64,000 nucleotides of DNA from an uncultured Rickettsiales bacterium (GCA_964493735.1 CAZBPN010000004.1:4109-68108), one strand, 5' to 3'. Numbered from the stretch's first letter, positions 9,045 to 64,000 are shown. Program-made: numbers and translations. Notes: generated by a model from the letters alone, not told the origin.

Positions 9045-10546
9045 CCGGTCCCCCTCCCCGGGCCGTCCAGGAACGCCCGCTCGGCCAGCGCACTGGCCGG
9101 ATCCAGCTGGCAGATCAGCGAGCGGAGATCGGCCCGGTGCGCCCCGGCCGCCTCGTCCTCGTCCCCGCGCCCCAGCGCCTCGAACAGCAGCCAGGCGGCG
9201 TTGATCTGGTGCCGCTCGGCGAGCCCGGGCAGGCCGGGGGCCGAGGGCGGGTCGTCCTGCAACCGCGCCAGCTGCGCCCGGAGCGCCTGGAGGCCCCGCT
9301 CCCGCTCCCGGAACGCCTCGGGCAGGGCGGTGAGCAGCCACGCGGCCAGGTACCCCACGTGGGACGCGTCGGCCTGGGGATCCCAGCGGTCGAGGGTCGA
9401 GTCGGCCAGGGCCCGGATGGTCGCGGCGTCGGATGCACCCCCCTTGTTCCCCTCGGTGCTCCGGGTGTAGAGCGCCAGCGCCAGGTAGACCGACGCCTCC
9501 GCGGGGGCGCGATCCCGGTCGACCTGGTCCTGGAGCAACTCGATCCCGGGGCCGGTCTCGCCGGAGAGCACGAGCGCGATGCCGTGCAGCGCCAGCAGCT
9601 CCGCATCCCCCGGGACCGCCTCCAGCCCCTGCTCCAGGGTGAACGCCGCCTCGCGGTAGCTGCCCGCGTGCATGTGGAGCTGGGCGGCCTGGCGCCACTC
9701 GGCGGGATCGCCGTGGCGGTTCGCCAGTAGCTGGCGGTGCTCGTCCACCGCCGACTGCAGATCGAAGCGCGCGCGGAAGGCCGCGCTGGGCCGGTAGACG
9801 ACCGTGGCCAGCACCCCCGCGGGCGCCGCGCCCAGCTCGAGGCGCCCGTGCAGCGCCCGCTGCAGCAGGGACTGCAGCACGTTGTGGACGAAGCTCGACG
9901 TGATCTCCCGGCGCACGAAGGCCTGGCCCAGCAGCCGCTCCGGCGTGCCCGCCTGTTCCCAGTCCAGCTCGATGAACTCCCGGTGCTCCAGCTCGAAGCC
10001 GACCCGCACGTAGGAGGCCACCGTGCGGAACGAGGCGAAGGGGATGCCGAGCTGGGTGCCCTGGTCGCACAGGGCGGCCACGTGGGCGTCGTAGGAGGTG
10101 AAGCGCGGCGGTGTCGTGCCCTCCAGCGGGCGGATCACCTGCTGGCCGATCAGCTCCTCGAGGCGGCTCACGTCGACGCCGGCCTCCTCGGCCAGCTCGT
10201 CGGCGCTCAGGGTCCGGCCGAGCCCCAGGTCCGAGGACTCCGCGAATCGACTCAGCCGCTGGGCCAGCGATTCGATGTGGAACAGGGGCTGCAGCCACTC
10301 GGGATCGAACTCGTAGAGCTCGAAGATGCGGCGCACCGTGTCCAGGGGCAGGTGGAACTCGTCCCGCAGCTTGCGCACCAGGTGCAGCAGCCGCAGGTGC
10401 TGCTCGCCGTAGCGAGCGCGGGTCTCGCAGGGCGGGAGGATCCCCTGGCGCAGGTAGTGGTGGATGAGCTCCTTGGACACGCCGGTGCGTTCCACCAGCT
10501 CGCTGATCCGGAGGCCTTCGGGACGGACGGGGGTAGAGGTGCTCAC
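9041..10546 (-). CDS. MerR-family transcriptional regulator with a large C-terminal TPR-like domain
   Basis: The N-terminal MerR helix-turn-helix is LRISELVERTGVSKELIHHYLRQGIL. It is followed by about 350 aa that are helical and repeat-like. Confidence 0.8.
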   Translation of the reverse strand: MSTSTPVRPEGLRISELVERTGVSKELIHHYLRQGILPPCETRARYGEQHLRLLHLVRKLRDEFHLPLDTVRRIFELYEFDPEWLQPLFHIESLAQRLSRFAESSDLGLGRTLSADELAEEAGVDVSRLEELIGQQVIRPLEGTTPPRFTSYDAHVAALCDQGTQLGIPFASFRTVASYVRVGFELEHREFIELDWEQAGTPERLLGQAFVRREITSSFVHNVLQSLLQRALHGRLELGAAPAGVLATVVYRPSAAFRARFDLQSAVDEHRQLLANRHGDPAEWRQAAQLHMHAGSYREAAFTLEQGLEAVPGDAELLALHGIALVLSGETGPGIELLQDQVDRDRAPAEASVYLALALYTRSTEGNKGGASDAATIRALADSTLDRWDPQADASHVGYLAAWLLTALPEAFRERERGLQALRAQLARLQDDPPSAPGLPGLAERHQINAAWLLFEALGRGDEDEAAGAHRADLRSLICQLDPASALAERAFLDGPGRGTG

Positions 10547-34497: not shown

Positions 34498-35775
34498 TCA
34501 GGGTTCCTCGATCGACTCCGGATCGTCCACCATCGGCAGGGTGAAGGAGAACGTCGTGCCCTCGCCCTGCATCGACCGGGCCTGGATCGCGCCGCCGTGC
34601 CGCTCGACGATCCGGCGGCAGATGGACAGGCCGATGCCGGTCCCCGGGTATTCCTCCCGGGTGTGCAGCCGCTGGAACACGCCGAAGACGCGCTCCAGGT
34701 ATTCCTCGTCGATCCCGATGCCGTTGTCCCGCACCGAGACGTTCCACCGACCGCAATCGATCCGGGCTGACACGTGGATCCGCGGCGGGGACTCGCTGCG
34801 GAAGCGGAGGGCGTTGGACAGCAGGTTCTGCAGCAGCTGGGTCACCTGGGTCGGGTCCGCGAGGACGGTGGGCAGGGGGTCGTGGTCGACCTCGGCGCCC
34901 ACCTCTTCGATCTGGGTCGCCAGGCTGCGGGACGCCGCCGCCAGCGCGTCCTCCAGCGCCACCGGGGTGGCTGGCTTCGCGTGGGTGCTCACCCGGGAAT
35001 AGGCGAGCAGGCCGTTGATCAGGCCCCGCATGTGATCCGCGCCGTCGACGGCGAAGCCGATGTAGGTGTCGGCGCGCTCGTCGATCTTGCCCTTGTAGCG
35101 GCGCTGGAGCAGCTGGAGGAAGGACGAGACCGTGCGCAGGGGCTCCTGCAGATCGTGGGAGGCGATGTAGGCGAAGCGCTCCAGCTCGTCGTTGGAGCGC
35201 GCCAGCTCCTCGTTGGCCTCGGTCAGCTCCGCGGTCCGCTCCTCGACCCGCTCCTCCAGGGTCTCCTTGGCGGCCTCGAGGGCCTCCTCGGCCTTCTTCC
35301 AGGCGGTGATGTCCCGGAACGAGACCGCGAACTGCCCCTTCTGCGGGCAGTAGGCCGAGATGTCGTAGTGGCGATCCAGAGGGGTGGAGTACTGCTGGAA
35401 CTCGATGGGCTCCCCGGTGAGGGCCACCTTGCCGTAGATCTCGATGAAGTCGTCGTGCTCGATCCCGGGCAGGGCCTCGGTGACCCGCTTGCCCAGCACC
35501 ATCTCCGGGGTGAGCCCGGTCAGGGTGGTGAACGCCGGGTTGATGGCCAGGAAGACGTAGTCCACGGGCACGCCGTCGTCGTCCAGCACCATCTCGTGCA
35601 GGGCGACGCCGTTGACCGAGTGCTCGAACAGCCCGCGGAAGCGCTCCTCGACCAGGTGCAGCTTGGCCCGGGACCGCTCCGCCTCCCGCTCCGCCTGCTC
35701 CAGCTGCTCGAGGCGGCCGCGGAGGGCGAGGAGTTCGGCCTCCAGCTCCTCCCGCGTCCGCCCGTCTTCACTCAT
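34498..35775 (-). CDS. PAS-domain sensor histidine kinase
   Basis: Coiled coil and PAS domain, the HisKA H-box (FAYIASHDLQEPLR) and an HATPase_c domain (DNGIGI...GTGIGL). The ATG at 35775 has a GAGGGG ribosome-binding site. Confidence 0.8.
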   Translation of the reverse strand: MSEDGRTREELEAELLALRGRLEQLEQAEREAERSRAKLHLVEERFRGLFEHSVNGVALHEMVLDDDGVPVDYVFLAINPAFTTLTGLTPEMVLGKRVTEALPGIEHDDFIEIYGKVALTGEPIEFQQYSTPLDRHYDISAYCPQKGQFAVSFRDITAWKKAEEALEAAKETLEERVEERTAELTEANEELARSNDELERFAYIASHDLQEPLRTVSSFLQLLQRRYKGKIDERADTYIGFAVDGADHMRGLINGLLAYSRVSTHAKPATPVALEDALAAASRSLATQIEEVGAEVDHDPLPTVLADPTQVTQLLQNLLSNALRFRSESPPRIHVSARIDCGRWNVSVRDNGIGIDEEYLERVFGVFQRLHTREEYPGTGIGLSICRRIVERHGGAIQARSMQGEGTTFSFTLPMVDDPESIEEP

Positions 35776-37198
35776 GGTCGACCCCTCGCGCTCGGTACAG
35801 ATCATACTTGCGCAGCATGGTCATCAGGTAGGTGCGCGAGATGGCGGCGATCCGCGCGGCCCGGGAGAGGTTGCCCTCGGCACGCTCGAGCAGGCGGGCG
35901 AAGTAGGCGCTCTCGTGCTCGGCCAGGATCGCGGCCTTGAACTCCTTGAACGTCAGGTCCAGCTGGCCCGGTCCGATGGGCTCGGTCCGCGGCCCGGTCG
36001 GATCGGCTGGCGCGGTCGGCGCCTCGTCGGCGACCCAGCTGGTCAGCAGGATGTCCTCGGGGCCGAGCAGGGGGCCGTCCGAGAGGGCCACGGCCCGCGA
36101 GATGACGTTGTCCAGCTCGCGAACGTTGCCCGGCCAGGGGTGGTCGAGGAGTTCCCGCAGCGCCTCCTCGCCGATGCCGTGCAGGAAGGGCGCCGTCGAC
36201 GGGCCCCGCCCGGCGGCCTCGGCGTGGCGGGTCAGGAAGGACTGGGCCAGCAGGGGTAGATCCTCGCGGCGCTCCCGCAGGGGAGGCAACGTCAGCTCGA
36301 GTCCGGCGATCCGGTAGTACAGGTCCTGACGGAAGCGGCCGTCGGCCACGTCCTGGGCCAGGGTGCGGTGGGTGGCGGCGATCAAGCGCACGTCCACGTC
36401 CACCTCCTGTTGCGCCCCCACCGGCCGGACCCGCCGGGACTCCAGAACCTGCAGCAGCTTGGGCTGCAGGTTCAGCGGCATCTCCCCGATCTCGTCGAGC
36501 AGGACCGTGCCGCCGTCCGCCTGTTCGAAGATCCCGGTCGCGCTGCGGTGGGCGCCGGTGAACGCGCCCCGCACGTGGCCGAACAGGGTGCTCTCCACCA
36601 GGTCGGGGGGCAGGGCGCCGCAGTTGATCGAGACGAAGGGCCGGTCCGCGCGGGCGCTCATCTCGTGGAGAGCCTTCGCGACCGCGGTCTTGCCCGTGCC
36701 GGTCTCGCCCAGCAGCACCACCGCCAGGTTGAGGGGGGCGACCCGGGCCATCATGTCGAACACCCGTTGCATGGCCGGGGCGGTCCCGATCAGCTGGCCG
36801 GTGGGATCGAAGGGCGAGCGCTCCAGGACCCGACGCCCGTCCTTGCCCTGCAGCCGCAGCTCGGTGTCACCCACGCGCAGGGTCATGTCGGGGGCCAGGT
36901 AGGCCTCGACGATACGCGCGTCGCCGCAGAACGAGCCGTTGGTGCTGTCCAGGTCGCGGATCCGGATCTCGTCGTCGCCCAGCAGGATCTCGCAGTGCTG
37001 GCCGCTCACCCGGGGGTCGGAGAGGACCAGGTCACACCAGGGATCCCGGCCAATCAGGGTCCGCTCGCCCAGGGGGTCCAGGCGCAGCTCGGTGTCGGGG
37101 CCCGCCGTCACCACCAGGGCACAGCGCCGGACCTTCAGCCTGGGCAGCCCCAGCATCCGCGGCGGGATGGTGGTCTTGATCGAGGGATCGTCTCCCAT
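35768..37198 (-). CDS. sigma-54-dependent transcriptional activator with an N-terminal FHA domain
   Basis: The order is FHA domain, the sigma-54 AAA+ domain (GETGTGKTAVAKALH, GAFTGA, ESTLFGH) and a C-terminal Fis-type helix-turn-helix. The gene overlaps the histidine kinase start by 8 bp. Confidence 0.85.
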   Translation of the reverse strand: MGDDPSIKTTIPPRMLGLPRLKVRRCALVVTAGPDTELRLDPLGERTLIGRDPWCDLVLSDPRVSGQHCEILLGDDEIRIRDLDSTNGSFCGDARIVEAYLAPDMTLRVGDTELRLQGKDGRRVLERSPFDPTGQLIGTAPAMQRVFDMMARVAPLNLAVVLLGETGTGKTAVAKALHEMSARADRPFVSINCGALPPDLVESTLFGHVRGAFTGAHRSATGIFEQADGGTVLLDEIGEMPLNLQPKLLQVLESRRVRPVGAQQEVDVDVRLIAATHRTLAQDVADGRFRQDLYYRIAGLELTLPPLRERREDLPLLAQSFLTRHAEAAGRGPSTAPFLHGIGEEALRELLDHPWPGNVRELDNVISRAVALSDGPLLGPEDILLTSWVADEAPTAPADPTGPRTEPIGPGQLDLTFKEFKAAILAEHESAYFARLLERAEGNLSRAARIAAISRTYLMTMLRKYDLYRARGVDHE

Positions 37199-37380
37199 CC
37201 GCTCTCCCCGTCGAAATCCCCGCTGGAGACGACCTTAGAGGACCGCCGCGGCTGTGCCAAGGGGGACGGATACGTCGATCCCGTGAAACGATCCGGGCCG
37301 CTGGTGGCTCTATCCCTGTGAGCCACGGCGAACGTGAGCCCGGTACCGACGCCCCAGGGCGACGATTGAAGGAGAGACCC

Positions 37381-37764
37381 ATGTCCACCCTGACGATGAC
37401 CAAGGACAACTTCGAGACGACCATCGAGAACAACGACCTGGTGCTGATCGACTTCTGGGCGGGGTGGTGCGGCCCCTGCAAGATGTTCGGACCGATCTTC
37501 GAGAAGAGCGCCGACAAGCACGATGACGCGGTGTTCGCCAAGGTCGACACCGAGGACCAGCAGGAGCTGGCGGGCCAGTTCGGCATCCGCTCGATCCCCT
37601 CGCTGGCCATCTTCCGCGAGCAGGTCCTGGTGTTCCTCCAGGCCGGCGCCCTGCCGGAGACCGCCCTCGACGAGATCGTGGGCAAGGTCAAGGACCTGGA
37701 CATGGATGAGGTCCGCGCCAAGATCGCCGAGGAGGAGGCCAAGCGGGCCACCGCCGAGGCCTGA
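37381..37764 (+). CDS. trxA: thioredoxin
   Basis: Active-site motif WAGWCGPCK with an AAGGAGAG ribosome-binding site. The upstream part of the 148-aa track ORF is an extension. Confidence 0.85.
   Translation: MSTLTMTKDNFETTIENNDLVLIDFWAGWCGPCKMFGPIFEKSADKHDDAVFAKVDTEDQQELAGQFGIRSIPSLAIFREQVLVFLQAGALPETALDEIVGKVKDLDMDEVRAKIAEEEAKRATAEA

Positions 37765-38862: not shown

Positions 38863-38866
<4 letters not shown>
38372..38866 (+). CDS. Cys-rich secreted lipoprotein with an acidic linker
   Basis: An AGAGAGGA ribosome-binding site, lipobox GVGC and a [13 protein letters not shown] linker are present. About 30 Cys lie in CxC / CxxxC repeats ([31 protein letters not shown]...). Confidence 0.6.
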
Positions 38867-40137
<1,271 letters not shown>

Positions 40138-40146
40138 CGTTTGCTC

Positions 40147-41124
40147 CTATCGGCGTGCCAGGACGCGGGCGGCGTCCCGGGCGAAGTAGGTCAGGATCAT
40201 CTTGGCGCCGGCGCGGCGGATGGACAGCAGCAGCTCCATCATCACCGCGTCGCCGTCGATCCAGCCCCGCTGGGCGGCGGCGTGGACCATGGCGAACTCG
40301 CCGCTGACGTTGTACGCCGCCAGCGGCACATCGAACCGGTCGCGGGCGGCCCGCAGGATGTCCAGGTAGGGCAGCGCGGGCTTGACCATCACGATGTCCG
40401 CGCCCTCCTCGATGTCCAGGGCGATCTCCCGCAGGGCCTCGTCCGCGTTGGCCGGATCCATCTGGTAGGCCTTGCGATCGCCGAAGGCCGGGGCGCTGTC
40501 GGCGGCCTCGCGGAACGGGCCGTAGAACGCCGACGAGTACTTGGCGGCGTAGGCCATGATCGCGACCTGGTCGAAGCCCGCCCCGTCCAGCCCCGCGCGG
40601 ATGGCCGCCACCCGGCCGTCCATCATGTCCGAGGGGGCCACCATGTCGGCGCCGGCCCGCGCGTGGGAGACGGCCGCCCGGGTCAGCAGCTCCAGGGTCG
40701 GGTCGTTGAGCAGGTCGTGGCCGTCGAGGACGCCACAGTGGCCGTGGCTGGTGTACTCACACATGCACACGTCGGTGAGGACCATCAGGTCGGGGAGGGC
40801 CTCCTTGATCGCCGAGACCGCCCGCTGCACCGGGGCGTCCATCGACCAGGCCTCGGAGCCCTCGGGGTCCTTGGTCTCCGGCAGGCCGAAGAGGATCACG
40901 GCCGGGATGCCCAGCTCCGCCACCTCGCGGGCCTCCTCGACCACCCGGTCCACCGACAGGTGGAAATTGCCGGGCATCGACGAGATCTCCGTGCGCACCC
41001 CCTCGCCCGGGCAGACGAACAGGGGCAGGACCAGGTCGTCGACCGAGAGCCGGGTCTCGGTCACCATCCGTCGCAGGGTCGGGTGACGCCGCAGGCGCCT
41101 CATTCGCCGGGTGGGAAAGCCCAT
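40147..41124 (-). CDS. hemB: porphobilinogen synthase (delta-aminolevulinic acid dehydratase)
   Basis: [13 protein letters not shown] is the typical HemB N-terminus, and the active-site Lys region is [10 protein letters not shown]. Confidence 0.9.
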
Positions 41125-41125
41125 C

Positions 41126-42070
41126 TCACTCCTCCTCAGGGGTCGCCAGGTCCAGCGACCGCAGGATCTCGTCCCCCCCGGCGGCCAGCAGCCGTTCGGC
41201 CAGCTGCAGGCCGATCGCCTCGGCGTCCTCCGCAGCCCCCCGCTCCTGGTCGCGCAGCAGGGGGGCGCCGTCCAGCGCAGCGATCACGCCGTCGAGCAGC
41301 AACTCCCCGTCGACCCAGCGCCCGTGGACCGCCACCGGCACGTGGCACCCGGCCTCGAGCCGCGCCAGGAAGGCGCGCTCCGCGGCGGTGGCGCGCTCGG
41401 TGGCAGGATGGGTCAGCGGGGCCACCCGCGCCAGGGTCTCGCCGTCGTCGGCGCGAACCTGGATCCCCAGGGCCGCCTGCCCGCCGGCGGGCACGAAACG
41501 CTCCACGTCCAGCAGCTCCACGGCCCGGTCGAGCCAGCCCATCCGGGAGAGGCCCGCGGCCGCCACCAGGGTCGCGTCCAGCTCCGGGAGCTCGCGGACC
41601 TTGCGCAGCCGCGTGTCCAGGTTGCCCCGGATCGGGGCCAGCTGCAGGTCGGGGCGGAGCGCCCCCCCCACGGCGCGGCGGCGAAGGGCGCCCGGGGCCA
41701 GGCTCGCCCCCTCCGGCAGCTCGTCCAGACGGTGGCCGGCGGGGCAGATCAACGCGTCCCGCGGGTCCTCCCGCTCGGGGACCGCGGCCAGCACCAGCCC
41801 CTCTCGCATCAGCGCCGGCAGGTCCTTGAGGCTGTGGACGGCCACGTCCACCTCGTCCTCCAGCAGCGCCCGCTCGATCTCGCGGGTGAACAACCCGGCG
41901 CCGCCCACCTGGTGCAGGGGCCGGTCCTGGACCCTGTCGCCGACCGTGGAGATCACCTGGATACGGACCTCCACGTCCGGGTGCAGGCTGGCCAGCGTCT
42001 CGCGGGTCCAGGTCGCCTGGGCCATCGCCAGGGCGCTGCCGCGGGTCCCGATCCGGATCGGCCTGCTCAT
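41126..42070 (-). CDS. hemC: hydroxymethylbilane synthase (porphobilinogen deaminase)
   Basis: The ATG at 42070 has a GAGGAGGG ribosome-binding site and begins [15 protein letters not shown]. It overlaps the hemA stop codon as ATGA. The 408-aa track ORF is over-extended. Confidence 0.85.
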
Positions 42071-43332
42071 CGTCCGCCCTCCTCGTCCAGCCCCAGCAGC
42101 AGCCGCAGCGCCTTGACCATCGAGCCCCCCTCCGGCTTGCTGGCGGACTGCTTCATCTGCACGGTCGGGTGGTGCAGCAGCTTGTTGACCATGCCCCGGG
42201 TCATCCCGTCGACCCGCTTGAAGTCCTCGTCCGAGAGCTTGCCTCGAAGCTTCTCGATCTCCGCCTGCCGCACCCCCTCGAACTGCTCGCGCATCTGCAC
42301 GATGGTCGGGGTGACCCCCTGGCGCCGGTGCCACTCCAGGAACTTGTCGCACTCGCCGGCCACGATCGCCCGGGCGCGATGGACCTCTCCCCGGCGCCGC
42401 TCCACCACCTCCTTGACCACCTCCTGGAGGGCGTCGATGTCGTAGAGGAAGACGTCCTCGATGCGGTCGACGTCCGGGTCGACATCCCGTGGCACGGCGA
42501 TGTCGATGATGAACAGCGGGGTCTTGCGGCGGGCGACCGCCCGGCGGATCAGCGGCGCCGTGATGACCGGCTCGGTCGCCCCGGTGGAGGTGACCAGCAC
42601 GTCCGTGTCGTTCAACGCCTCGTCGAGCTGCTCCCAGGGCACCGGGGTGCCGCCCAACTCCTCGGCCACGGCCTCGGCGCGTTCGTAGGTGCGGTTGGTG
42701 ATCAGCAGCTGGCGGATGCCCCGGTCCAGCGCGTGGCGCGCGACCAGCTCGCCCGTCTCGCCGGCGCCCACCATCAGCAGGGTCCGCTCGTCCAGGTCGG
42801 CGAAGATCTTCTCGGCCAGGTCGCAGGCCACCGCCGCCACCGACATGCGGCCCTCGCCCACTCCGGTCTGGGTCCGGACCTGCTTGCCGACCCGCAGGGC
42901 CCGGTGGAGCAGCTTGTTGACCAGCGGGCCGTTGGTCCGGCAGGTGACCGCGTGGGAGTAGGCGTCCCGCACCTGGCCCAGGATCTGGTTCTCGCCGATC
43001 ACCATCGAGTCCAGGCCGCCGGCCACCATGAACAGGTGCTCGACCACGTCCCGGTCCGAGCGGCGGTAGACGTGGCCGTCCAGGTCCTCGCGGGGCAGGG
43101 TCGTGCCGCTGGCCAGCAGATCCGCCAGCTCGTCGTGGTGGCCGTCGTCGTCGCTGTAGACCGCGTAGACCTCGGTGCGGTTGCAGGTGGACAGGACCAT
43201 CGCCTCGACCACGGTGGACGTCTCGCGCAGGCTGTTGAGCGTGCGGACGATCCCCGGCTGGTCCAGCGCCACCTGCTCGCGGAACTCCACCGGAGCGGTC
43301 TGGTGGCTCAGTCCGACCATCCTCAGGCGCAC
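42067..43332 (-). CDS. hemA: glutamyl-tRNA reductase
   Basis: Motifs VVGLSHQTAPVEFRE and CNRTEVY and the NADP-binding block are present. The start is either the GTG at 43332 or the ATG at 43320. Confidence 0.85.
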   Translation of the reverse strand: MRLRMVGLSHQTAPVEFREQVALDQPGIVRTLNSLRETSTVVEAMVLSTCNRTEVYAVYSDDDGHHDELADLLASGTTLPREDLDGHVYRRSDRDVVEHLFMVAGGLDSMVIGENQILGQVRDAYSHAVTCRTNGPLVNKLLHRALRVGKQVRTQTGVGEGRMSVAAVACDLAEKIFADLDERTLLMVGAGETGELVARHALDRGIRQLLITNRTYERAEAVAEELGGTPVPWEQLDEALNDTDVLVTSTGATEPVITAPLIRRAVARRKTPLFIIDIAVPRDVDPDVDRIEDVFLYDIDALQEVVKEVVERRRGEVHRARAIVAGECDKFLEWHRRQGVTPTIVQMREQFEGVRQAEIEKLRGKLSDEDFKRVDGMTRGMVNKLLHHPTVQMKQSASKPEGGSMVKALRLLLGLDEEGGR

Positions 43333-45625: not shown

Positions 45626-48469
45626 CTAGCAGCCGTTGCCGGGGTAGACGGTGGGATCCCGGTCGTCGCAGTCCCAGCCGTCGGCGGGGTAGCTGACCGG
45701 GTCGTAGCTGCCCGGCTGCCACCACTCGGGGAAGCCGTCGAAGTCCAGATCGAACCCGTCCGCGTCGGGACCGCCGTACGCGCCGATGTCGGAGCGGGAG
45801 CCGTCGGGGTCGTACATGTTGTACACGCCCGTGTCGTACAGGCCCGACGCGCTGTCCAGGTGCAGGTCCCAGTCCAGCGGGTCGCCGGCGGCGGTGCCCA
45901 GGAAGGCCGGATCCACCGAGATGTTGCCGTTGAGTCCGCTCGGATCCGATCCGCCGGCGTAGTTGTCCGGCGAGTTGTCCCAGGCGTTGCAGTAGGTGAA
46001 CTGGGCGGTGGCCCAGTGGTAGACGCCGCCGCCCTCGACCGTGGCGGCGTTGCCGGCGGCGTTGAGGTTCTTGATGATCGGTGAGGTGTTGTACAGGTAG
46101 ACCCCGCCGCCGGTCTCCGCCTCGTTGCCGACCACGGTCAGGTTGAGCAGGTCCGGGTAGCCGAAGCCCTCCATGTACAGCCCGCCCCCCTCGCCCAGGG
46201 CCGAGTTGCCCAGCAGGCTGAGGTTGGTGAACTCGACCCCCGAGCCGTAGGCGTAGATGCCGCCACCCGCCAGGGCGATGTTGTCGGCGATCAGCACGTT
46301 GGTCAGCTCGGGCACGCCCCCGTACATGTAGATGCCGCCGCCCTCCAGGTCGGCCCCGTTGTCGTCGATCAGCACGTTGACCAGGGTCGGGCTCCCGCCC
46401 TGTACCGCCATCCCACCGCCCTGCCCCGCGGTGGCGCAGTCGGTGATCCAGACATCGGTCAGCGTCGGGCTCGACGCGGAGACCATCACGCAGCCGCCCA
46501 TCGTCCCGTCGTAGCCCCCGGTGATGGTGAAGCCCTCGAGCACCGTCGACGGGGTCTCACCGCCCGAGAACAGCACCGTGCGGGCCAGGTCGCCGCCGTC
46601 GATGATGGTCTCGTGGGGGCCCTCGACGCCGTACAGGTGGACCTCCCGGCCGCCGAAGTCCAGGTTCTCCTCGTAGATCCCGGCCGCGACGCAGATCACG
46701 TCCCCGTCGGCCGCGCCGTCGATGGCGTCCTGGAGGGTCGGGTACTCGCCGGGCACCGATCCGACCCCGGGCGCGCCCGGGTAGATGGTCGGATCGTCGT
46801 CGTCGCAGTCCCCCTCGCACAGGAAGGCGCCGTCCCCGTCCCCGTCCACCTCGTCGGCGAGCAGGTTGCCGTCGCAGTCGTTGTCCGCGCCGTCGCAGAT
46901 CTCGGGGGCGCCCTCGTAGACCGTCGCGTCGCCGTCGTCGCAGTCCAGGTCGTCGGCCGCGAAGTTCAGCGGCTGCTCGCAGGTCACCTGGGTCACGGCC
47001 TGGGTACCGTGGCCGTCCCCGTCCAGGTCCTGGTACCAGAGGGTGGCGTCGACCGCGTCGTCCTCGTCCACCTCCCCGTCGCAGTCGTCGTCGTGACCGT
47101 CGCAGTACTCGTCGGCGCCGGGGAAGATGGTGTCGTCGCCGTCGTCGCAGTCGGTGCACTCGCCGATGCCGTCCCCGTCCCCGTCCGGATCGTCGTCGGT
47201 GGCGCCGTCGCAGTCGTTGTCCGCCCCGTCGCACAGGATCTCCGGCAGCCCGGGGTGGACCAGCGGGTTGGTGTCGTCGCAGTCCACGCAGACCGGGAAC
47301 AGGTCCCCGTCCCCGTCGGGCTGGTCGTCGGTCACCAGGCTGCAGTCGTTGTCGATGCCGTCGCAGATGACCTCGGTCGCGCCCGGGAACACCGCCGGGT
47401 CGGTGTCGTCGCAGTCGTCGCAGGCGTCGAAGCCGTCCCCGTCGGCGTCGGGCATGTCGAGGGTGGCGGGGTCGCAGTCGTTGTCGACCCCGTCGCAGTG
47501 GGTCTCGCCGGCGCCCGGGTTGATCGCCGGGTCGGCGTCGGCGCAGTCGTCGCACGCGGAGTACCCGTCCGCGTCCACGTCCGGCTCGTCGATGGTGGCG
47601 GGGTCGCAGTCGTTGTCGACCGCGTCGCAGACCAGCTCCGGGGCGCCGGGGTAGGTCGTGGGCTCGGAGTCATCGCAGTCGGGCTGGCCGGCGGGGCCCC
47701 CGCAGACCATGTGGCCGTCGCCGTCCAGGTCGTCCTCCTCGCCCGGGACGGCGCCGTCGCAGTCGTTGTCCAGGCCGTCGCACAGCTCCTCGGCGCCCGG
47801 GTAGCGGGTGGGGTCGTCGTCGTCGCAGTCCACGCAGGAGTCGTGGCCGTCGAAGTCCGAGTCGTCCAGGTCCAGGGAGAGGGCGTCGCAGTCGTTGTCG
47901 ATGCCGTCGCAGGGGATCTCCTGGGCGCCCGGGTGGATGGCGGCGTCCCCGTCGTCGCAGTCCACGCAGCTGCCGTACCAGTCCCCGTCCCCGTCCGGGT
48001 TGTCCAGGGTGGCCTCGTCGCAGTCGTCGTCCACGCCGTTGCAGGCGGTCTCCTCGGCCGCCGGCCGCTCCGGATCCGCGTCGTCGCAGTCGCCGGCGCA
48101 GACCATCAGCCCGTCGCCGTCGCCGTCCTCCTCGTCCGCGCCGAGGCTGCCGTCGCAGTCGTCGTCGACACCGTTGCACTGTTCGTACGCGCCGGGGTGC
48201 ACGGTCGGATCGGCGTCGTCACAGTCACCGTCGTCAGGGCTCCAGCCGTCCCCGTCCTCGTCCACCTCCTCGGTGGCGTCGTCGTCTCCGGTGGTGTCGT
48301 CGTCCCCGGTGTCGTCATCCCCGGTGTCGTCGTCCCCGGTGTCGTCGTCTCCGGTGTCGTCGTCTCCGGTGTCGTCGTCGTCCGAGGCGGTGTCGTCGTC
48401 GTCGTCGGTGGGGCACCCACCGAGCACGAGGGCGAGCCCCAGCAGGATCAGCAGCAAGCGCGATGGCAT
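45626..48469 (-). CDS. giant lipoprotein with about 12 MopE-type Cys/Asp putative metal-binding motifs and a C-terminal right-handed beta-helix domain
   Basis: Lipobox LGGC followed by a (DDDTG)n linker. Repeated DCDDxDPxxxPGAxExCDGxDNDCDG units follow. The C-terminal 330 aa contain GGG-centred beta-helix rungs (GGGIYMYG, GGGIYAYG, GGGLYMEG, GGGVYLYN). Confidence 0.8.
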   Translation of the reverse strand: MPSRLLLILLGLALVLGGCPTDDDDDTASDDDDTGDDDTGDDDTGDDDTGDDDTGDDDTTGDDDATEEVDEDGDGWSPDDGDCDDADPTVHPGAYEQCNGVDDDCDGSLGADEEDGDGDGLMVCAGDCDDADPERPAAEETACNGVDDDCDEATLDNPDGDGDWYGSCVDCDDGDAAIHPGAQEIPCDGIDNDCDALSLDLDDSDFDGHDSCVDCDDDDPTRYPGAEELCDGLDNDCDGAVPGEEDDLDGDGHMVCGGPAGQPDCDDSEPTTYPGAPELVCDAVDNDCDPATIDEPDVDADGYSACDDCADADPAINPGAGETHCDGVDNDCDPATLDMPDADGDGFDACDDCDDTDPAVFPGATEVICDGIDNDCSLVTDDQPDGDGDLFPVCVDCDDTNPLVHPGLPEILCDGADNDCDGATDDDPDGDGDGIGECTDCDDGDDTIFPGADEYCDGHDDDCDGEVDEDDAVDATLWYQDLDGDGHGTQAVTQVTCEQPLNFAADDLDCDDGDATVYEGAPEICDGADNDCDGNLLADEVDGDGDGAFLCEGDCDDDDPTIYPGAPGVGSVPGEYPTLQDAIDGAADGDVICVAAGIYEENLDFGGREVHLYGVEGPHETIIDGGDLARTVLFSGGETPSTVLEGFTITGGYDGTMGGCVMVSASSPTLTDVWITDCATAGQGGGMAVQGGSPTLVNVLIDDNGADLEGGGIYMYGGVPELTNVLIADNIALAGGGIYAYGSGVEFTNLSLLGNSALGEGGGLYMEGFGYPDLLNLTVVGNEAETGGGVYLYNTSPIIKNLNAAGNAATVEGGGVYHWATAQFTYCNAWDNSPDNYAGGSDPSGLNGNISVDPAFLGTAAGDPLDWDLHLDSASGLYDTGVYNMYDPDGSRSDIGAYGGPDADGFDLDFDGFPEWWQPGSYDPVSYPADGWDCDDRDPTVYPGNGC

Positions 48470-55818: not shown

Positions 55819-57768
55819 TCAGCGCACCACCACCCGCACCGGCGATCCGGCCGAGCCGTGGGCGGCGGTCCCGCAGCCGCTGGCCTCCACGTAGTAGAGG
55901 ATCGCCGGGCGGTGCTCGGCGGTGACCGGCAGGGACCAGGAGAACGAGGGCCCGTCCCCCCCCAGCGCCGCGGTCCGCCAGGCGCCCGACCCCTCCACGG
56001 TCCAGTGGACGGCCACGTCGCAGCCGGTCCTGCCGGTGTCGACGCGGGTGGTCAGGGTGGTGTTGCGCAGGGTGCGGCGGGAGCCCTCGACGGCGAGGGT
56101 GAGGGGGGCGTCGACCTCGGCGAGGACGAAGGCGTCGGCGTCTGTCTCGGTCTCGGTCTCGTCCTCGTCCTCGGCCTCGGTCTCGTCCTCGGTCTCGTCC
56201 TCGGTCTCGGTCTCGGACTCGGACTCGGTCTCGGACTCGGTCTCGGACTCGGTCCCGTCCTCGGCGGAGCTCCCGGCCCCGCGCTCACCTCCGAGCTCGG
56301 GTGGCACGGGCAGCTTGCTGCCCGTGGGGGGAACGGGAACAGCCTCCTCCTCGTCCTCGATCTCGATCTCCGTCAGCGCATCGTCGCCCACCACCTCGTC
56401 GCCCCCACCGGTCGACGCCGGCGAGACGGTCCCGGTCGCGGGGGGTCCCGCCGAGTCCCGGCTGAGCAGGCCCCAGCCCGCCACCGACGCGATCCCGACG
56501 ACGACCACCCCGAGGAAGAGCAGCAGCAACGGGATCGCCAGCCAGAGCCAGATCGCCCGCTTCTTGCGCGGCTCCTCCTCCACGGGCGTGGGCGGTTCCT
56601 CGGGGGGCGCGACGACCGGCGGATCGTCCTTGACCGTGTCGTCGATGGGCTCGTCGTCGCGCTCGGTCGCCTCGCCGGCGGGAGCCTCGATCCGGTCGGT
56701 GGGATCGTCCCAGTCCGGGTGGTGACGGGCGCCGGCGTAGGGCCGTTGCTCGGTCTTGTCGCCCCGGGGTTCCCCCTCGGCGCCGTGGAGGACCGAGTAG
56801 TCCCCGCTGCGATCCGACGGCAGCTCCTCCAGGCTCCCCTCGTCCAGCTCCTCGGCCAGCCGCTCCTGCCAGCGGGCCACCAGCGCCGGCATCTGTTGCT
56901 CCAGCGGGTACACGGAGCGCAGCCCCCTCAGCTCGCGGGCCACCTCCGCGGCGCTCTCCGGGCGGTCCCCGGGCTGGGGCTGGAGCAGGCGCCGCAGCAG
57001 GGGCGTGAAGGCGTCGGCCGTCCCCGGCAGGGCCAGCAGCAGCTCCTCGGGATCCGGCGCCACCTCGGTGATCGGCTGGCCCCGGCGGTAGGCCATCTTG
57101 GCCGGCACGATCGAGGTCAATCCCTGCAGCAGCATGACCCCCAGGGAGAACAGGTCGCTGGCCGGTGACACCTCGCCGGCGACCGCCTGCTCGGGGGACA
57201 TGTAGCCGGGGGTGCCGACGATCGTCTCCTTGGCGGTGATTCGCTCCTTGGCGCGGGCGCTGACCACGCCGAAGTCGGTGATCTTGACCCGCCCGGAGCG
57301 GTGGACCAGCACGTTGGAGGGCTTCAGATCCCGGTGGACGAGCTCCAGGTGCTTGCCCTCCAGGTCATGCAGGTCGTGGATGTGCTCCAGCCCGCGACAG
57401 ATCTGGTGGCCCACCTCGGCCACGAGCCCCGGGCTCATGACCTCCTCGTGCTCCATCATGTGGAAGTACAGGTCGCCCAGGTCGATGCCGTCCACGTACT
57501 CGGTGATCAGGAAGTACTCGTCCTTGACCTTGAGCAGGTCGATGGTGCCCACGACGTTGTCGTGGTTCATCAGCCCGCCGATCTGGGCCTCGCGGATCAG
57601 GAGCTTGACGACCGCCGGATCCCGGGTCGCCGAGCGGTGCAGCCGCTTCATCGCCACCTGGCGGACGAAGGGCCCCTCGCCCTCCATGCGGGCCAGGTAG
57701 ACGGTGGAGAACGCGCCGCTGCCCAGGGGCCGGACGATGGTGTAGCGCCCGATCCGTACCTCGTCCAT
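55819..57768 (-). CDS. Hanks-type Ser/Thr protein kinase with a single TM helix and an extracellular (SE/TE/DE)n acidic repeat region
   Basis: Kinase motifs are GSGAFSTVY...AMK, HRDLKPSNVL, DFG and GTPGYMSPE. The TM helix is AIWLWLAIPLLLLFLGVVVVGIA. The repeat region reads TESETESETESESETETEDETEDETEAEDEDETETETD. Confidence 0.85.
   Translation of the reverse strand: MDEVRIGRYTIVRPLGSGAFSTVYLARMEGEGPFVRQVAMKRLHRSATRDPAVVKLLIREAQIGGLMNHDNVVGTIDLLKVKDEYFLITEYVDGIDLGDLYFHMMEHEEVMSPGLVAEVGHQICRGLEHIHDLHDLEGKHLELVHRDLKPSNVLVHRSGRVKITDFGVVSARAKERITAKETIVGTPGYMSPEQAVAGEVSPASDLFSLGVMLLQGLTSIVPAKMAYRRGQPITEVAPDPEELLLALPGTADAFTPLLRRLLQPQPGDRPESAAEVARELRGLRSVYPLEQQMPALVARWQERLAEELDEGSLEELPSDRSGDYSVLHGAEGEPRGDKTEQRPYAGARHHPDWDDPTDRIEAPAGEATERDDEPIDDTVKDDPPVVAPPEEPPTPVEEEPRKKRAIWLWLAIPLLLLFLGVVVVGIASVAGWGLLSRDSAGPPATGTVSPASTGGGDEVVGDDALTEIEIEDEEEAVPVPPTGSKLPVPPELGGERGAGSSAEDGTESETESETESESETETEDETEDETEAEDEDETETETDADAFVLAEVDAPLTLAVEGSRRTLRNTTLTTRVDTGRTGCDVAVHWTVEGSGAWRTAALGGDGPSFSWSLPVTAEHRPAILYYVEASGCGTAAHGSAGSPVRVVVR
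56143..56262. repeat. imperfect tandem hexamer array of about 19 units (ctcggt / ctcgtc / ctcgga) encoding the (T/S/D)E repeat of the kinase
   Basis: Read directly from lines 56101-56280. Confidence 0.75.
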
Positions 57769-58990: not shown

Positions 58991-59761
58991 TCAGAACCGC
59001 CAGGTCGCCGCCAGCCCGGCCCGTCCCGGCCCCGGCGTGATCACCGGCGCCGTCAGCCCGGTCGAGCGGGCCGGATTCCGCCGACCGGCGGTGGCCAGGT
59101 CCGCGATCAGGCCCGCCAGGGCCACCCCGCCGCTGGCGGCGGCTGCGATGAACGTCACGTTGTTCAGGGGCCTGCGGGCGTCGTAGAGTTCCCGGTCCCC
59201 TTGCTCGATCCACTGGCGGCTCTGGACGAAGGTGATCGTCGCCGTCGCGCCGAACCCGGCCGCCAGTCCGCCGCCGATGCCCGCGACCACCAGTCCCGGG
59301 GGGGCGTTGCCCCTGCGATTGGGGGGTGCGCGCTCGACCCGGGTCGAGCCGATCGGCGAGGTGCCCGGATCATCGTCGGGGTCGACCTCGGCCGGAGCGC
59401 TCCGCCGTACCTCCCCGAGCAGCTCCTCCAGCTCCTGGCGGATGGGCTCGTCCGACGGCTCCATGCAGCCGACGAAGTCGGTGTAGGCCTCGGTGGCGCG
59501 GTCCAGCTCCCCCAGCTCCGCGTAGGTGCGGGCCAGGTACTCGTCGAGGATGCAGCACTCCGGATCCTCGGTCTTGGCGCGCTTCAGCAGGGAGAGGGCG
59601 AGGGCGGGATCCCCGTCGTCCAGGGCCTCGGTGGCCGCAAACAGGTAGTTCTCTGTCTTGAGGCTGACCTCGCCGTCGGCCGCGGGCAGGGCACACGCCA
59701 CCATGGCGATGGCCGCCAATGAACCGACGAGCGCGGTGGGTAACGGACCCCACGACCGCAT
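58991..59761 (-). CDS. TPR-like protein with a signal peptide and C-terminal hydrophobic segments
   Basis: The N-terminal signal is MVAC. TPR-like helices (LARTYAELGELDRATEAY) are followed by two Gly/Ala-rich TM-like segments. Confidence 0.5.
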   Translation of the reverse strand: MRSWGPLPTALVGSLAAIAMVACALPAADGEVSLKTENYLFAATEALDDGDPALALSLLKRAKTEDPECCILDEYLARTYAELGELDRATEAYTDFVGCMEPSDEPIRQELEELLGEVRRSAPAEVDPDDDPGTSPIGSTRVERAPPNRRGNAPPGLVVAGIGGGLAAGFGATATITFVQSRQWIEQGDRELYDARRPLNNVTFIAAAASGGVALAGLIADLATAGRRNPARSTGLTAPVITPGPGRAGLAATWRF

Positions 59762-59904
59762 GACGAAGCCCCTCCACCCGGGCCATCCCCGGCCGGGCGA
59801 CGGGACCGGCTGGAACCGCCGGGACGCCTGTCGCCATCGGTCAGAATACCAGCGTTGGGCGCGCGCGGGGCGGTTTCCCCGGAGGCTTCACCCGGACGAG
59901 TGCG

Positions 59905-60432
59905 CTACGCGCGGATCGCCGCGATGAACGCGTCCGGGGATGGGTGGTCGCCGGCTTCGCGGCACACGTACTCGAAGTGGGTCGCGTCGCCGGGGCCGAG
60001 GACGAACACGCCCCCCTGCTGCCAGGGATCCCCCTGGGTCGAGCCCTGGCGGTTGCCGCCGCGGATCGCCCGGCCCAGGTGGCGCAGGGCCCGCAGGTTG
60101 GCGGTGGTGCGGATCCCCTTGCGCAGATCGGCGGCGCGGTAGGCCTCCATGGACGGGTCGACCAGCACCGGGAACGGCAGCCCGTGCTGCTCGACGAAGT
60201 CCGCCGCCATCGCCGGCTGGCCCTGGCCGATCACCACCAGGTCGGCGCCGCGGTCATGGATGTCGGGGAGGACGTCGCGCAACTGCGCGACCTGCTCGCG
60301 GCAGAACAGTCACCCGTAGTGGCGGATGAACACGACCACCCGCGGGGCGTCCGACCACAGGTCGCCCAGGCGCACGGGGCGGTCGTCGTGATCTCGGAGC
60401 TCGATGGGAGCCAGTCGGGTCGCGGTGTCCAT
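59905..60432 (-). CDS. candidate selenoprotein: AhpC/TSA (peroxiredoxin-like, redoxin fold) protein with an in-frame TGA at codon 41 (60310-60312) giving a U-x-x-C active-site motif
   Basis: The reverse-complement translation from the ATG at 60432 is MDTATRLAPIELRDHDDRPVRLGDLWSDAPRVVVFIRHYG-U-LFCREQVAQLRDVLPDIH..., which is peroxiredoxin-like. The supplied ORF track shows only the 125-aa portion downstream of the TGA. Confidence 0.5.
60274..60291 (-). other. bSECIS-like hairpin: perfect 7-bp stem GUCGCGC / GCGCGAC with apical loop AGUU, beginning 18 nt 3' of the in-frame UGA
   Basis: Read directly from the sequence. A G and a U in the apical loop and the spacing from the UGA both fit bacterial SECIS geometry. 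Confidence 0.4.
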
Positions 60433-60473
60433 GAAGCGGACTGTAGTCACGCCGCCGGCCCGGGGCCAGCGAT

Positions 60474-62042
60474 CTAGTCCATCACCAGGACGATGAACTG
60501 GACCCGGCGGTTCTCGGCGTGGGCGGCCTCGGTGTTGGCGGGGTCGATCAGCTGCTGTTCACCGTATCCGGCGGCGACCAGGCGGTCGGCCCCGATCCCC
60601 TTGCCGATCAGGTAGGCGCGGACGGCGTTGGCCCGGTCCTGGGAGAGCTCCAGGTTGTAGCCGTCGTCGCCGCGGGTGTCGGTGTGGCCCTGGATCTCCA
60701 CCTTGCGGATGTTGGGGTACGCGACCAGGATCTCCTGCACCGCGTCGAGGACCTTGTGGGACTCGGGCTTGATGGTGGCCTTGGCCAGGTCGAAGTAGAC
60801 CTTCTCGAAGATCCGGATCTCGGCCACGGTGTCCTCCACCACCAGCTCCACCAGCGCCGTGTCGGGGCAGCCGTCGTCGTCCTCGACCCCGTTGACCGTC
60901 TCCGGCTGGGTAGGGCAGTCGTCCTCGTCGTCGAGGAACCCGTCCCCGTCCCGGTCGCCGGCGGCGTCGGGGCAGCCGTCCTTGTCGTCGGTCCCGTTGA
61001 GGGTCTCGGGCCGGTCCGGGCACTCGTCCTCGGTGTCCAGGACCCCGTCGCCGTCGTTGTCCGGGTCCGGGCAGCCGTCGTCGTCCTCCCAGCCGTCGAT
61101 GTCCTCGGGCTCGCCCGGGCACTCGTCGGCCTTGTCCGACACCCCGTCCCCGTCCCGATCCGTCGGCGGCATGATGGTGTAGCCCAGGCCGAACACGATC
61201 CGGCCCTCGGGGGACGGCACCCCCTGACCGATGGAGGTCCCCGCCGCGATCCGGAAGGCCACGCCGGGCACCGGGTAGATGGTCGCGCCGGCGAGCCACT
61301 CGGTCGGGTCGTTGCGGGGCACGCCCCGCACGTCGCCGAAGATCTCCCCGCTGAAGGCGAGGGCGTCGATGGGCGTCACGCTGACCGCGGCGCGCCACAG
61401 GAAGGCGTTGCCCGCGATCAGGTCCTCGACCTCCTCGGGCCGCGTGATCCGGTACCCCAGGTTGGCGCCCATCCGCAGCATGCCGATGTGACCCGACAGC
61501 ATCAGCATCGGCGCGAACGACAGGAAGGAGCGGCCCGCGTAGAGCGCCTCGTTGCCGGACGGCAGGCTCAGGGGCAGCACGAAGCCGACGCCGAACTTCT
61601 TCTCCTCGGCGTCCATGAACCGCACCTTGGGCACGATCCGGATGTCGCCGACCGCGGTGCCGACGAAGGCGTCGGTCCAGCCATCGAAGCCGTCGCCGCT
61701 GATGGCCAGGTGGATCGGGATGTCCACCGCCAGGTCGGCGGGGCCGAAGCCGATGGCCGCCTGCAGGTCCATGGTCGCCAGGTCGCCCACCACCCGCTGG
61801 AAGCTGCCGTCGTCGTACCGGTAGAGGACCGGATCGCGGGCGTAGGTGAACCACATCGCGAACGCGGGCTTGCCCAGCTCGAGGGTGCGCGCGTAGTGGG
61901 TGGTGAACCAGCCGTGGTAGTCCGTGTGGGGCTGGAAGTTCTGGGCGTCCATCGGCGGGGGATCCGCCGCCGCCGGCCGGGCCATCGCCGCGACCATCGC
62001 CAGCACGATCCACGCTCCCTGGAGTCTCGTCAGCATCCGCAT
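60474..62042 (-). CDS. OmpA-family outer-membrane protein with an N-terminal beta-barrel, thrombospondin type-3 calcium-binding repeats and a C-terminal OmpA domain
   Basis: A signal peptide is followed by DxDxDGxxDxxDxCP TSP3 repeats. The OmpA C-terminal domain is NIRKVEIQGHTDTRGDDGYNLELSQDRANAV...NRRVQF. Confidence 0.8.
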   Translation of the reverse strand: MRMLTRLQGAWIVLAMVAAMARPAAADPPPMDAQNFQPHTDYHGWFTTHYARTLELGKPAFAMWFTYARDPVLYRYDDGSFQRVVGDLATMDLQAAIGFGPADLAVDIPIHLAISGDGFDGWTDAFVGTAVGDIRIVPKVRFMDAEEKKFGVGFVLPLSLPSGNEALYAGRSFLSFAPMLMLSGHIGMLRMGANLGYRITRPEEVEDLIAGNAFLWRAAVSVTPIDALAFSGEIFGDVRGVPRNDPTEWLAGATIYPVPGVAFRIAAGTSIGQGVPSPEGRIVFGLGYTIMPPTDRDGDGVSDKADECPGEPEDIDGWEDDDGCPDPDNDGDGVLDTEDECPDRPETLNGTDDKDGCPDAAGDRDGDGFLDDEDDCPTQPETVNGVEDDDGCPDTALVELVVEDTVAEIRIFEKVYFDLAKATIKPESHKVLDAVQEILVAYPNIRKVEIQGHTDTRGDDGYNLELSQDRANAVRAYLIGKGIGADRLVAAGYGEQQLIDPANTEAAHAENRRVQFIVLVMD

Positions 62043-62083
62043 CGGCTCGACCTCCCCGTCGTCAGCCGTTCCTCGTCAGCAGT

Positions 62084-64000
<1,917 letters not shown>

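Follow-up and report, generated by a model that had tools for sequence, protein, structure and literature searches.

The window analysed here is a stretch of 64,000 nucleotides (nt) (GCA_964493735.1, CAZBPN010000004.1:4109-68108) deposited for an uncultured Rickettsiales bacterium. Near its high-coordinate end, at positions 59905-60432, the minus strand carries a reading frame of 175 codons with one in-frame TGA, which is followed by a hairpin resembling a bacterial selenocysteine insertion sequence (SECIS). The frame is predicted to encode a thioredoxin-fold redox protein with selenocysteine (Sec, U) at the TGA position. The following features could be assigned at the locus:

59905-60432, minus strand: predicted complete selenoprotein coding sequence (CDS) of 175 codons with Sec as codon 41, TAG stop (59905-59907) included; the product is a SelL-related/Prx-like2 thioredoxin-fold redox protein
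60313-60432, minus strand: the 40 N-terminal codons before the UGA, encoding redoxin-fold beta strands and ending in RHYG
60310-60312, minus strand: in-frame UGA, predicted Sec codon, first position of UxxC and aligned to the invariant first Cys of CxxC
60301-60303, minus strand: TGC codon for the second UxxC residue, the predicted resolving Cys, which is Cys in all Sec and Cys forms
60274-60291, minus strand: bacterial SECIS core hairpin with 5' arm GUCGCGC (60291-60285), apical loop AGUU (60284-60281) and 3' arm GCGCGAC (60280-60274)
60010-60033, minus strand: GDPWQQGG, signature motif of the subfamily, nearly invariant across homologue alignments and used as a TGA-neutral probe

Translation of the minus strand from the ATG at 60432 gave MDTATRLAPIELRDHDDRPVRLGDLWSDAPRVVVFIRHYG, followed by the TGA at 60312-60310. 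Behind it the same frame runs on as LFCREQVAQLRDV... up to the TAG at 59907-59905, and the TGA, in the context RHYG-TGA-LFC-REQ, is the sole interruption of the 175 codons. An alternative start, the GTG at 60450, shares this frame, and the ATG at 60432 agrees with the N-termini of homologues (MD.../MS...). The downstream part corresponds to a TTG-initiated open reading frame (ORF) of 125 amino acids (aa) at 59905-60282, while gene callers treat the N-terminal part as a separate 40-aa ORF or drop it. An identical gene with an identical TGA was found on contigs of three separate JGI metagenome samples (L068-L070), all of which carry the 40-aa and the 125-aa ORF. The initial annotation had described a frame that starts at the ATG at 60432, meets the TGA at 60310-60312 and continues into the 125-aa ORF, and translation reproduced each of these coordinates; its statement that the gene had been missed by ORF calling agrees with the split on L068-L070.

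The UGA codon in relatives and selection on the reading frame

A protein search of databases returned 53 matches. The full-length matches (168-206 aa) all read RHFG-C-LFC-REQ, and in an alignment of 15 full-length homologues the Cys at the position of the UGA was invariant. About 30 of the 53 matches were only 125-147 aa long, covered the C-terminal 65-77% of the query and were broken at or shortly past the UGA codon. Many of these start with M[FL]CREQ (M[FL]CREQVAQLRD), the expected outcome when an ORF caller restarts just past a stop. When the DNA of six short matches was inspected, an in-frame TGA could be identified at exactly the same codon in all six, with a conserved redoxin N-terminus upstream.

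Metagenome contigs were then scanned with the pattern GDPWQQGG, which is neutral to both the TGA and the hairpin, and 80 loci were kept, these being the best tblastn matches to a Sec-form query. The codon in question is TGA in 76 of them, TGC in one and not parsable in three, and a conserved ...FIRHFG precedes the TGA. Over all loci parsed, 89 TGA codons stand against 10 TGC/TGT codons. Genome contigs were also scanned with RH[FY]GCL[FL]C, a pattern that requires Cys; the resulting loci (L001-L067), which served as the Cys-form control set, are nearly all Cys forms, as the pattern demanded, with one of them, L062, additionally carrying a Sec-form paralogue. In L062, a contig of a metagenome-assembled genome (MAG) labelled uncultured Spirochaetaceae, the Sec form with TGA and canonical hairpin and the Cys-form paralogue with TGT and no hairpin (L062:3745-3801 and L062:5419-5475) lie ∼1.7 kb apart. 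The initial annotation had placed the TGA at the redox-active Cys of a CxxC motif, and the invariant Cys of the homologues confirms this. As to whether orthologues carry Cys or Sec there, which it had raised, full-length homologues have Cys and the 76 metagenome relatives have TGA with the upstream frame conserved.

Selection on the two halves of the frame was analyzed by comparison with the orthologue in L078, which has 69% protein identity. For the 40 codons upstream of the TGA, nonsynonymous (dN) and synonymous (dS) divergence were 0.15 and 0.72, respectively, resulting in a dN/dS of 0.21. For the downstream part dN/dS was 0.45, and dS values against L078 were 0.45-0.72. Among 70 Sec-form relatives the upstream residues are conserved and the synonymous sites free, with four to five different codons in use at Arg-4 and Gly-1. 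Therefore, the segment before the UGA is translated in this frame, and a decaying pseudogene is thereby excluded.

A lone in-frame stop in an otherwise intact gene does look like a nonsense mutation in a pseudogene, or like a sequencing or assembly error in which TGA replaces TGC or TGT, from which it differs by one base; the splitting of the gene by gene callers adds to this impression. However, the same TGA occurs in three independent metagenome samples, is shared with L078 at a dS of 0.45-0.72 and an upstream dN/dS of 0.21, and is common to 76 of the 80 relatives. Moreover, decay or error would leave unexplained the covarying hairpin that accompanies the TGA only (see below). Both alternatives, which had been named in the initial annotation, are thus extremely improbable and in practice excluded by the recurrent TGA, the dN/dS values and the covarying hairpin.

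The hairpin downstream of the UGA codon

The hairpin GUCGCGC-AGUU-GCGCGAC has a perfect stem of 7 bp and begins 18 nt past the UGA. Its minimum free energy (MFE) is -13.7 kcal/mol (z = -2.8 versus shuffles), a stability also reached by 2 of 200 dinucleotide shuffles. In the published model of the bacterial SECIS, a loop of 3-9 nt is carried on a stem of 4-16 bp, with 16-37 nt from UGA to loop and an MFE of at most -7.5 kcal/mol (PMC13188914, Fig. 2 legend), and a G stands at loop position 1 or 2, in most cases with G or U after it (PMC13188914). The hairpin of the window agrees with the model in all these points, with GU at positions 2-3 of the loop AGUU, 7 bp, 25 nt between UGA and loop and -13.7 kcal/mol. 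Taken on this sequence alone, it is weak evidence and only mildly unusual; that it goes beyond chance follows from the comparative evidence.

Among 72 distinct Sec forms, all seven pairs are present at the same place in 63 and the loop is AGUU or AGGU in 69, whereas none of 67 Cys forms has the seven pairs. In an alignment of 60 distinct Sec forms, 95.7% of the pair cells hold standard pairs, and double-sided changes could be observed in six of the seven pairs (GUCACGC/GCGUGAC, GUGGCGC/GCGCCAC, GUGGCCC/GGGUCAC, GCGGUGC/GCACCGC). None of 500 shuffles reached the observed value of any of five measures, and sliding the 3' partner by 1-3 columns left 10-63% paired. In 43 Cys forms the same columns were 44.9% paired, no better than in shuffles or slid registers; this control set includes L001-L003, which are 48-53% similar to the window protein, the same range as most Sec forms. 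The codon of the Leu in the loop is TTG, elsewhere a rare codon, in 98% of the Sec forms, compared with three to six codons at other Leu positions there and six codons at the loop position in Cys forms. The coordinates given for the hairpin in the initial annotation (60274-60291, 18 nt past the TGA) were right, and its interpretation as a SECIS is supported by the agreement with the published model and by covariation that is found in Sec forms and not in Cys forms.

Variant hairpins were found in some relatives. In a soil clade (L142, L143, L149, L151-L157, L160) that has U-A-S-C, or U-P-A-C in L160, instead of U-L-F-C, the 7-bp stem GUGGCCG/CGGCCAC is displaced by 1 nt and carries a 5-nt loop, AGUUG. 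The usual hairpin is absent from three Sec forms with RHYG-U-[LM]FCREQVAR[LF] (L150:1260-1316, L158:2480-2536, L161:441-497). These have a 6-bp stem, GCGAGC/GCUCGC in L150 and L158 and GUGAGC/GCUCGC in L161, with the loop AGGUC, which starts 16 nt past the UGA and may be an alternative placement of the SECIS. From the variant stems and placements it follows that structure, not sequence, is preserved. A Cys form (TGT) in an Acidimicrobiales MAG (L040:10118-10174) keeps most of the hairpin, GCCGCGC-AGTT-GCGCGAG, which would fit a recent conversion from Sec to Cys.

Protein family, proposed selenocysteine decoding and genomic context

Profile scores were obtained for the joined product with U written as C. 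The NCBIfam model NF040769 (SelL-related redox protein) scored 127.2 bits against a cut-off of 120, with residues 8-172 on profile positions 4-172 of 173. The Pfam families PF13911 (AhpC-TSA_2; Prx-like2/SELENOU/PRXL2), PF00578 (AhpC-TSA) and Redoxin scored 66 bits (cut-off 27), 51.8 bits and 34.7 bits, respectively, and the NCBIfam BCP model stayed below threshold (19.4 bits, cut-off 140). Among proteins of solved structure, human PRXL2B (prostamide/prostaglandin F synthase; PDB 9us9, E 1.2e-7) is the closest in sequence; its RRFG-C-VVC-R aligns with RHYG-U-LFC-R, so that the UGA codon stands opposite Cys44 of PRXL2B. The fold was taken from the AlphaFold model of P0003, a full-length Cys homologue 54% identical to the window protein. 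This model (predicted local distance difference test, pLDDT, 95.9) has a thioredoxin/peroxiredoxin fold, with the first Cys of CxxC immediately before helix 47-57 and the strands 16-18, 24-26 and 36-40 all N-terminal to CxxC. Its top fold match is again PRXL2B (TM 0.77/0.85), followed by BCP, AhpE and ResA.

Typical peroxiredoxins have a PxxxTxxC site, in which the Thr precedes the terminal, peroxidatic Cys by three residues. This site is absent: FIRHYG-U-LF-C has Sec (Cys in homologues) where the Thr would stand and lacks the Pro four residues ahead of that position. Neither is the motif the UxxU of SELENOL; in this gene and in all relatives examined, TGC (Cys) fills the second position. The protein belongs to the Prx-like2/SelL/SELENOU (PRXL2) branch, outside the classical AhpC/Prx proteins. 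As Sec stands in for the N-terminal nucleophilic Cys of a thioredoxin-type CxxC, at the site held by Thr in the TxxC of true peroxiredoxins, the enzyme is more probably a reductase of the thiol-disulfide or endoperoxide type than a typical peroxidase. Of the earlier proposal of a Sec-containing thiol peroxidase or thiol-disulfide oxidoreductase of the AhpC/TSA family, the redox enzyme with a UxxC site is retained in view of the PF00578 and PF13911 matches, and the classical AhpC/Prx assignment is given up in view of the missing TxxC site and the low BCP score.

The fold also bears on the possibility that translation stops at the UGA, with a functional downstream ORF of 125-134 aa and a 40-aa ORF that encodes a separate peptide or a leader. 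Public annotation presents the genes in this way, both on L068-L070 and in RefSeq (WP_373047335.1, 129 aa). According to the P0003 model, however, the downstream product would have neither the three beta strands nor the attacking residue. In addition, the called start codons of the downstream ORF are inconsistent among relatives (TTG, ATG and CTG, at different codons) while the TGA-xx-TGC register is invariant, and in more than 70 relatives a frame shift or a spacer between the two ORFs was never seen. Two separate products are therefore regarded as very improbable.

Several observations weigh against reading the UGA as Sec. Genes for selA, selB, selD and tRNA-Sec were not found in the 64-kb window, in its short flanks (∼6 kb past the low-coordinate end, L169-L171, and ∼2.7 kb past the high-coordinate end, L068) or in the fetched loci of relatives and homologues, 1.55 Mb in all. 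Specifically, tblastn with E. coli SelA, SelB and SelD gave no match in the window and the 1.55 Mb of loci; ARAGORN reported no tRNA in the window, and no tRNA-Sec was found in the fetched loci; at gathering thresholds no Rfam family was detected in the window; and Pfam searches of 40 predicted window genes returned no domain of the Sec machinery. A scan of the window for in-frame TGA codons with high G+C at third codon positions (GC3) on both sides yielded no second selenoprotein candidate, since it returned only ordinary gene ends preceding same-frame neighbours. Moreover, in the window, which has 71% G+C, a perfect hairpin with 7 bp or more that obeys the same loop and spacing rules comes after 23 of the 1099 TGA trinucleotides (2.1%), and the TGA share of 76 in 80 metagenome loci may overstate the frequency of Sec forms in the whole family, as these were the best matches to a Sec-form query. 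In the SECIS of E. coli fdhF, the loop is GGUC and its GU lies at +23/+24 from the U of the UGA. The loop GU of the window lies at +30/+31, 7 nt further; this spacing is still inside the 16-37 nt of the model (PMC13188914).

That no Sec machinery was found in the sequences analysed would be accounted for if, in a host without selenium metabolism, the UGA were read through or recoded other than as Sec, by near-cognate insertion of Trp or Cys, by Cys-tRNA(Sec) or by hairpin-stimulated read-through. Hairpins 3' of stop codons can stimulate read-through generally. The site is, however, the catalytic Cys position, at which Sec/Cys exchange is the rule for selenoproteins, and the loop has the exact G[G|U] feature and the spacing of a bacterial SECIS (PMC13188914). 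An enzyme with Trp in place of the nucleophile would be inactive, and the occurrence of Sec and Cys forms within one family is the pattern that defines selenoprotein families. Insertion of a residue other than Sec is therefore considered unlikely. Reassignment of TGA in the genetic code was rejected: among 46 window genes selected by GC3, 27 end in TGA, 19 in TAG and none in TAA, and the residue that homologues carry there is Cys and neither Trp nor Gly.

Combining the UGA at the Cys position and its conservation in relatives, the selection on both halves of the frame, the covarying hairpin confined to UGA forms and the family and fold of the product, it is concluded with high confidence that 59905-60432 encodes a true UxxC selenoprotein and holds a working SECIS in its coding region. 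The organism probably decodes Sec, as suggested by the long-term upkeep of UGA and SECIS in the lineage.

From the established bacterial mechanism and the fold of the family we infer how the gene would be expressed and how its product would act, including Sec insertion, SelB binding, substrate and reductant. The UGA at 60312-60310 would be recoded as Sec, so that one gene yields a 175-residue cytoplasmic thioredoxin-fold oxidoreductase with the active site Sec41-Leu-Phe-Cys44. The hairpin would serve as the SECIS, with the GU of the apical loop 27-28 nt after the UGA, and would bind SelB-GTP-Sec-tRNA(Sec), bringing this complex to the ribosome as the UGA enters the A site. The selenolate of Sec41 is predicted to immediately precede the N-terminal end of the first long helix, the place of the attacking Cys in CxxC enzymes. 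Its attack would be directed at an oxidised substrate (for example a disulfide, sulfenic acid or peroxide/endoperoxide), and the adduct would then be resolved by Cys44 to a selenenylsulfide, which a thioredoxin-type reductant would reduce. The window encodes a 148-aa thioredoxin (37318-37764, plus strand; PF00085, 89.5 bits) at a distance of 22 kb from the selenoprotein gene. This thioredoxin might be the reductant, but its gene is unlinked to the selenoprotein gene in every relative examined.

A promoter and terminator scan of 59700-60700 gave no match. A conserved operon partner was considered and rejected, since the neighbours vary by lineage: OmpA and Bmp genes in the window and L078, a short-chain dehydrogenase gene in L071, DUF924 in L075 and MerR and NmrA in L082. 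In L071 (8844-9973) the start of the selenoprotein gene overlaps the end of the short-chain dehydrogenase gene (8844-9791 versus 9788-...), which suggests translational coupling in that lineage only; L071 belongs to a 6.0-Mb contig on which other neighbours carry PSD/PSCyt domains and are planctomycete-like.

Elsewhere in the window, genes could be identified for a lamin-tail-domain protein (1694-3097), an FHA/sigma-54 activator (35768-37198), a MopE-repeat protein (45626-48469), a Ser/Thr kinase (55819-57768) and TSP3 and OmpA proteins (60474-63856). A haem-biosynthesis cluster on the minus strand (38863-43332) comprises glutamyl-tRNA reductase, porphobilinogen deaminase, HemB (40147-41124) and a class-III aminotransferase (38863-40137). 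The GC3 filter also picked a plus-strand ORF at 41111-42445 that has no Pfam match; according to the gene calls of L166 the true genes are on the minus strand. HemB of the window is 96% identical to a partial protein of a 'Myxococcota bacterium', and the gene content of the window fits Myxococcota; the 72.5-kb source contig is accordingly assigned to a MAG of an uncultured marine member of the Myxococcota. This population is also present in JGI 3300009008 and 3300007510 and in ENA ERZ23498639, ERZ23498658 and ERZ23498660.

Significance and comparison with known selenoproteins

Among the selenoproteins predicted in bacteria, those with a thioredoxin fold and a UxxC motif form the commonest class. 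The gene of the window is a further member of the established Prx-like UxxC class, and its recognition is a repair of annotation and not a discovery; general knowledge of selenoproteins is unchanged by it. What changes is that two ORFs of 40 and 125 aa become one redox enzyme of 175 residues and that use of Sec by the organism is implied. In JGI, ENA and RefSeq records, a whole clade of SelL-related/Prx-like2 proteins is broken at this one codon. The RefSeq entry WP_373047335.1 (Vulgatibacter sp.; P0035 cluster) holds only the 129 aa after the TGA under the name 'AhpC/TSA family protein', and the DNA of this cluster (L077:9875-10417) contains a full Sec-form gene with the compensated hairpin GUGGCGC/GCGCCAC.

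Members of the clade were found in Myxococcota, in a genome with a planctomycete-like gene neighbourhood and in the MAG labelled Spirochaetaceae, and Sec forms seem to make up most of the clade. It is conceivable, though on balance doubtful, that the RHFG-U-LFC-REQ/GDPWQQGG clade is an uncatalogued subfamily of bacterial selenoproteins, a counterpart of SELENOL/SELENOU in which the Sec form predominates in soil, wetland, sediment and marine bacteria, which has its own nearly invariant SECIS (stem and AGUU loop, encoded by V-A-Q-L-R-D) and of which nearly all public members are mis-annotated as truncated ORFs. The unusually uniform SECIS of the clade could be used as a simple handle in searches.

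By 2005 the known bacterial selenoproteins included a Prx-like family in which a thioredoxin-like UxxC takes the place of TxxU (PMC1088965). The Global Ocean Sampling (GOS) study distinguished the groups Prx-like 1-3 and described SelL as a Prx-like selenoprotein common to prokaryotes and eukaryotes (PMC2398784), and current catalogues define 'Prx-like thiol:disulfide oxidoreductase' by PF00578 together with UxxC/UxxU (PMC9312934, PMC13188914). Like Prx-like 1-3 of the Sargasso Sea and GOS selenoproteomes, the window protein is a distant homologue of peroxiredoxins with UxxC for the TxxU of Sec-peroxiredoxins, Sec in the first position and a SECIS in the CDS right after the UGA; likewise, Cys homologues exist and sequences are common in aquatic metagenomes. 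With 51.8 bits for PF00578 and UxxC, it falls under the operational definition of the catalogues, whose reference protein is WP_010940744.1 (Geobacter). The text-form supplementary sequence files of the GOS study contain neither of the signatures RHFG-U-LFC-REQ and GDPWQQGG. In the 2026 catalogue, selenoproteins of the cd02970 type (Prx-like2) appear only with UxxS, and NF040769 is not in the table (PMC13188914). The joined protein scores over the cut-off of NF040769, and the Cys homologue P0007 in a Myxococcota MAG is named by NCBI as a SelL-related redox protein. Unlike the named NF040769 members among the matches, which are Cys forms, the Sec forms are annotated as shortened 'hypothetical protein' (JGI) or 'AhpC/TSA family protein'.

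In eukaryotes, SELENOU has the human Cys homologues PRXL2A, B and C, and fish SELENOL (SelL) is a further Prx-like selenoprotein related to these (bioRxiv 10.1101/2025.05.29.656587); Sec forms of SELENOU occur in fish and birds (bioRxiv 10.1101/2025.05.29.656587; PMC2398784). The window protein shares with SELENOU/PRXL2 the fold, the Pfam family AhpC-TSA_2 and the place of the redox motif, but sequence identity is only ∼22-26%, and a prostaglandin substrate is implausible in a bacterium. Unlike the eukaryotic Sec forms, in which the SECIS lies in the 3' untranslated region, the window gene has its hairpin in the coding region, and unlike SELENOL, with its UxxU and diselenide, its product has UxxC. 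Compared with the SECIS of E. coli fdhF, the hairpin has no sequence similarity and no bulged U is evident, but both lie within the CDS, close by the UGA on its 3' side, and have G-U at positions 2-3 of a 4-nt apical loop.

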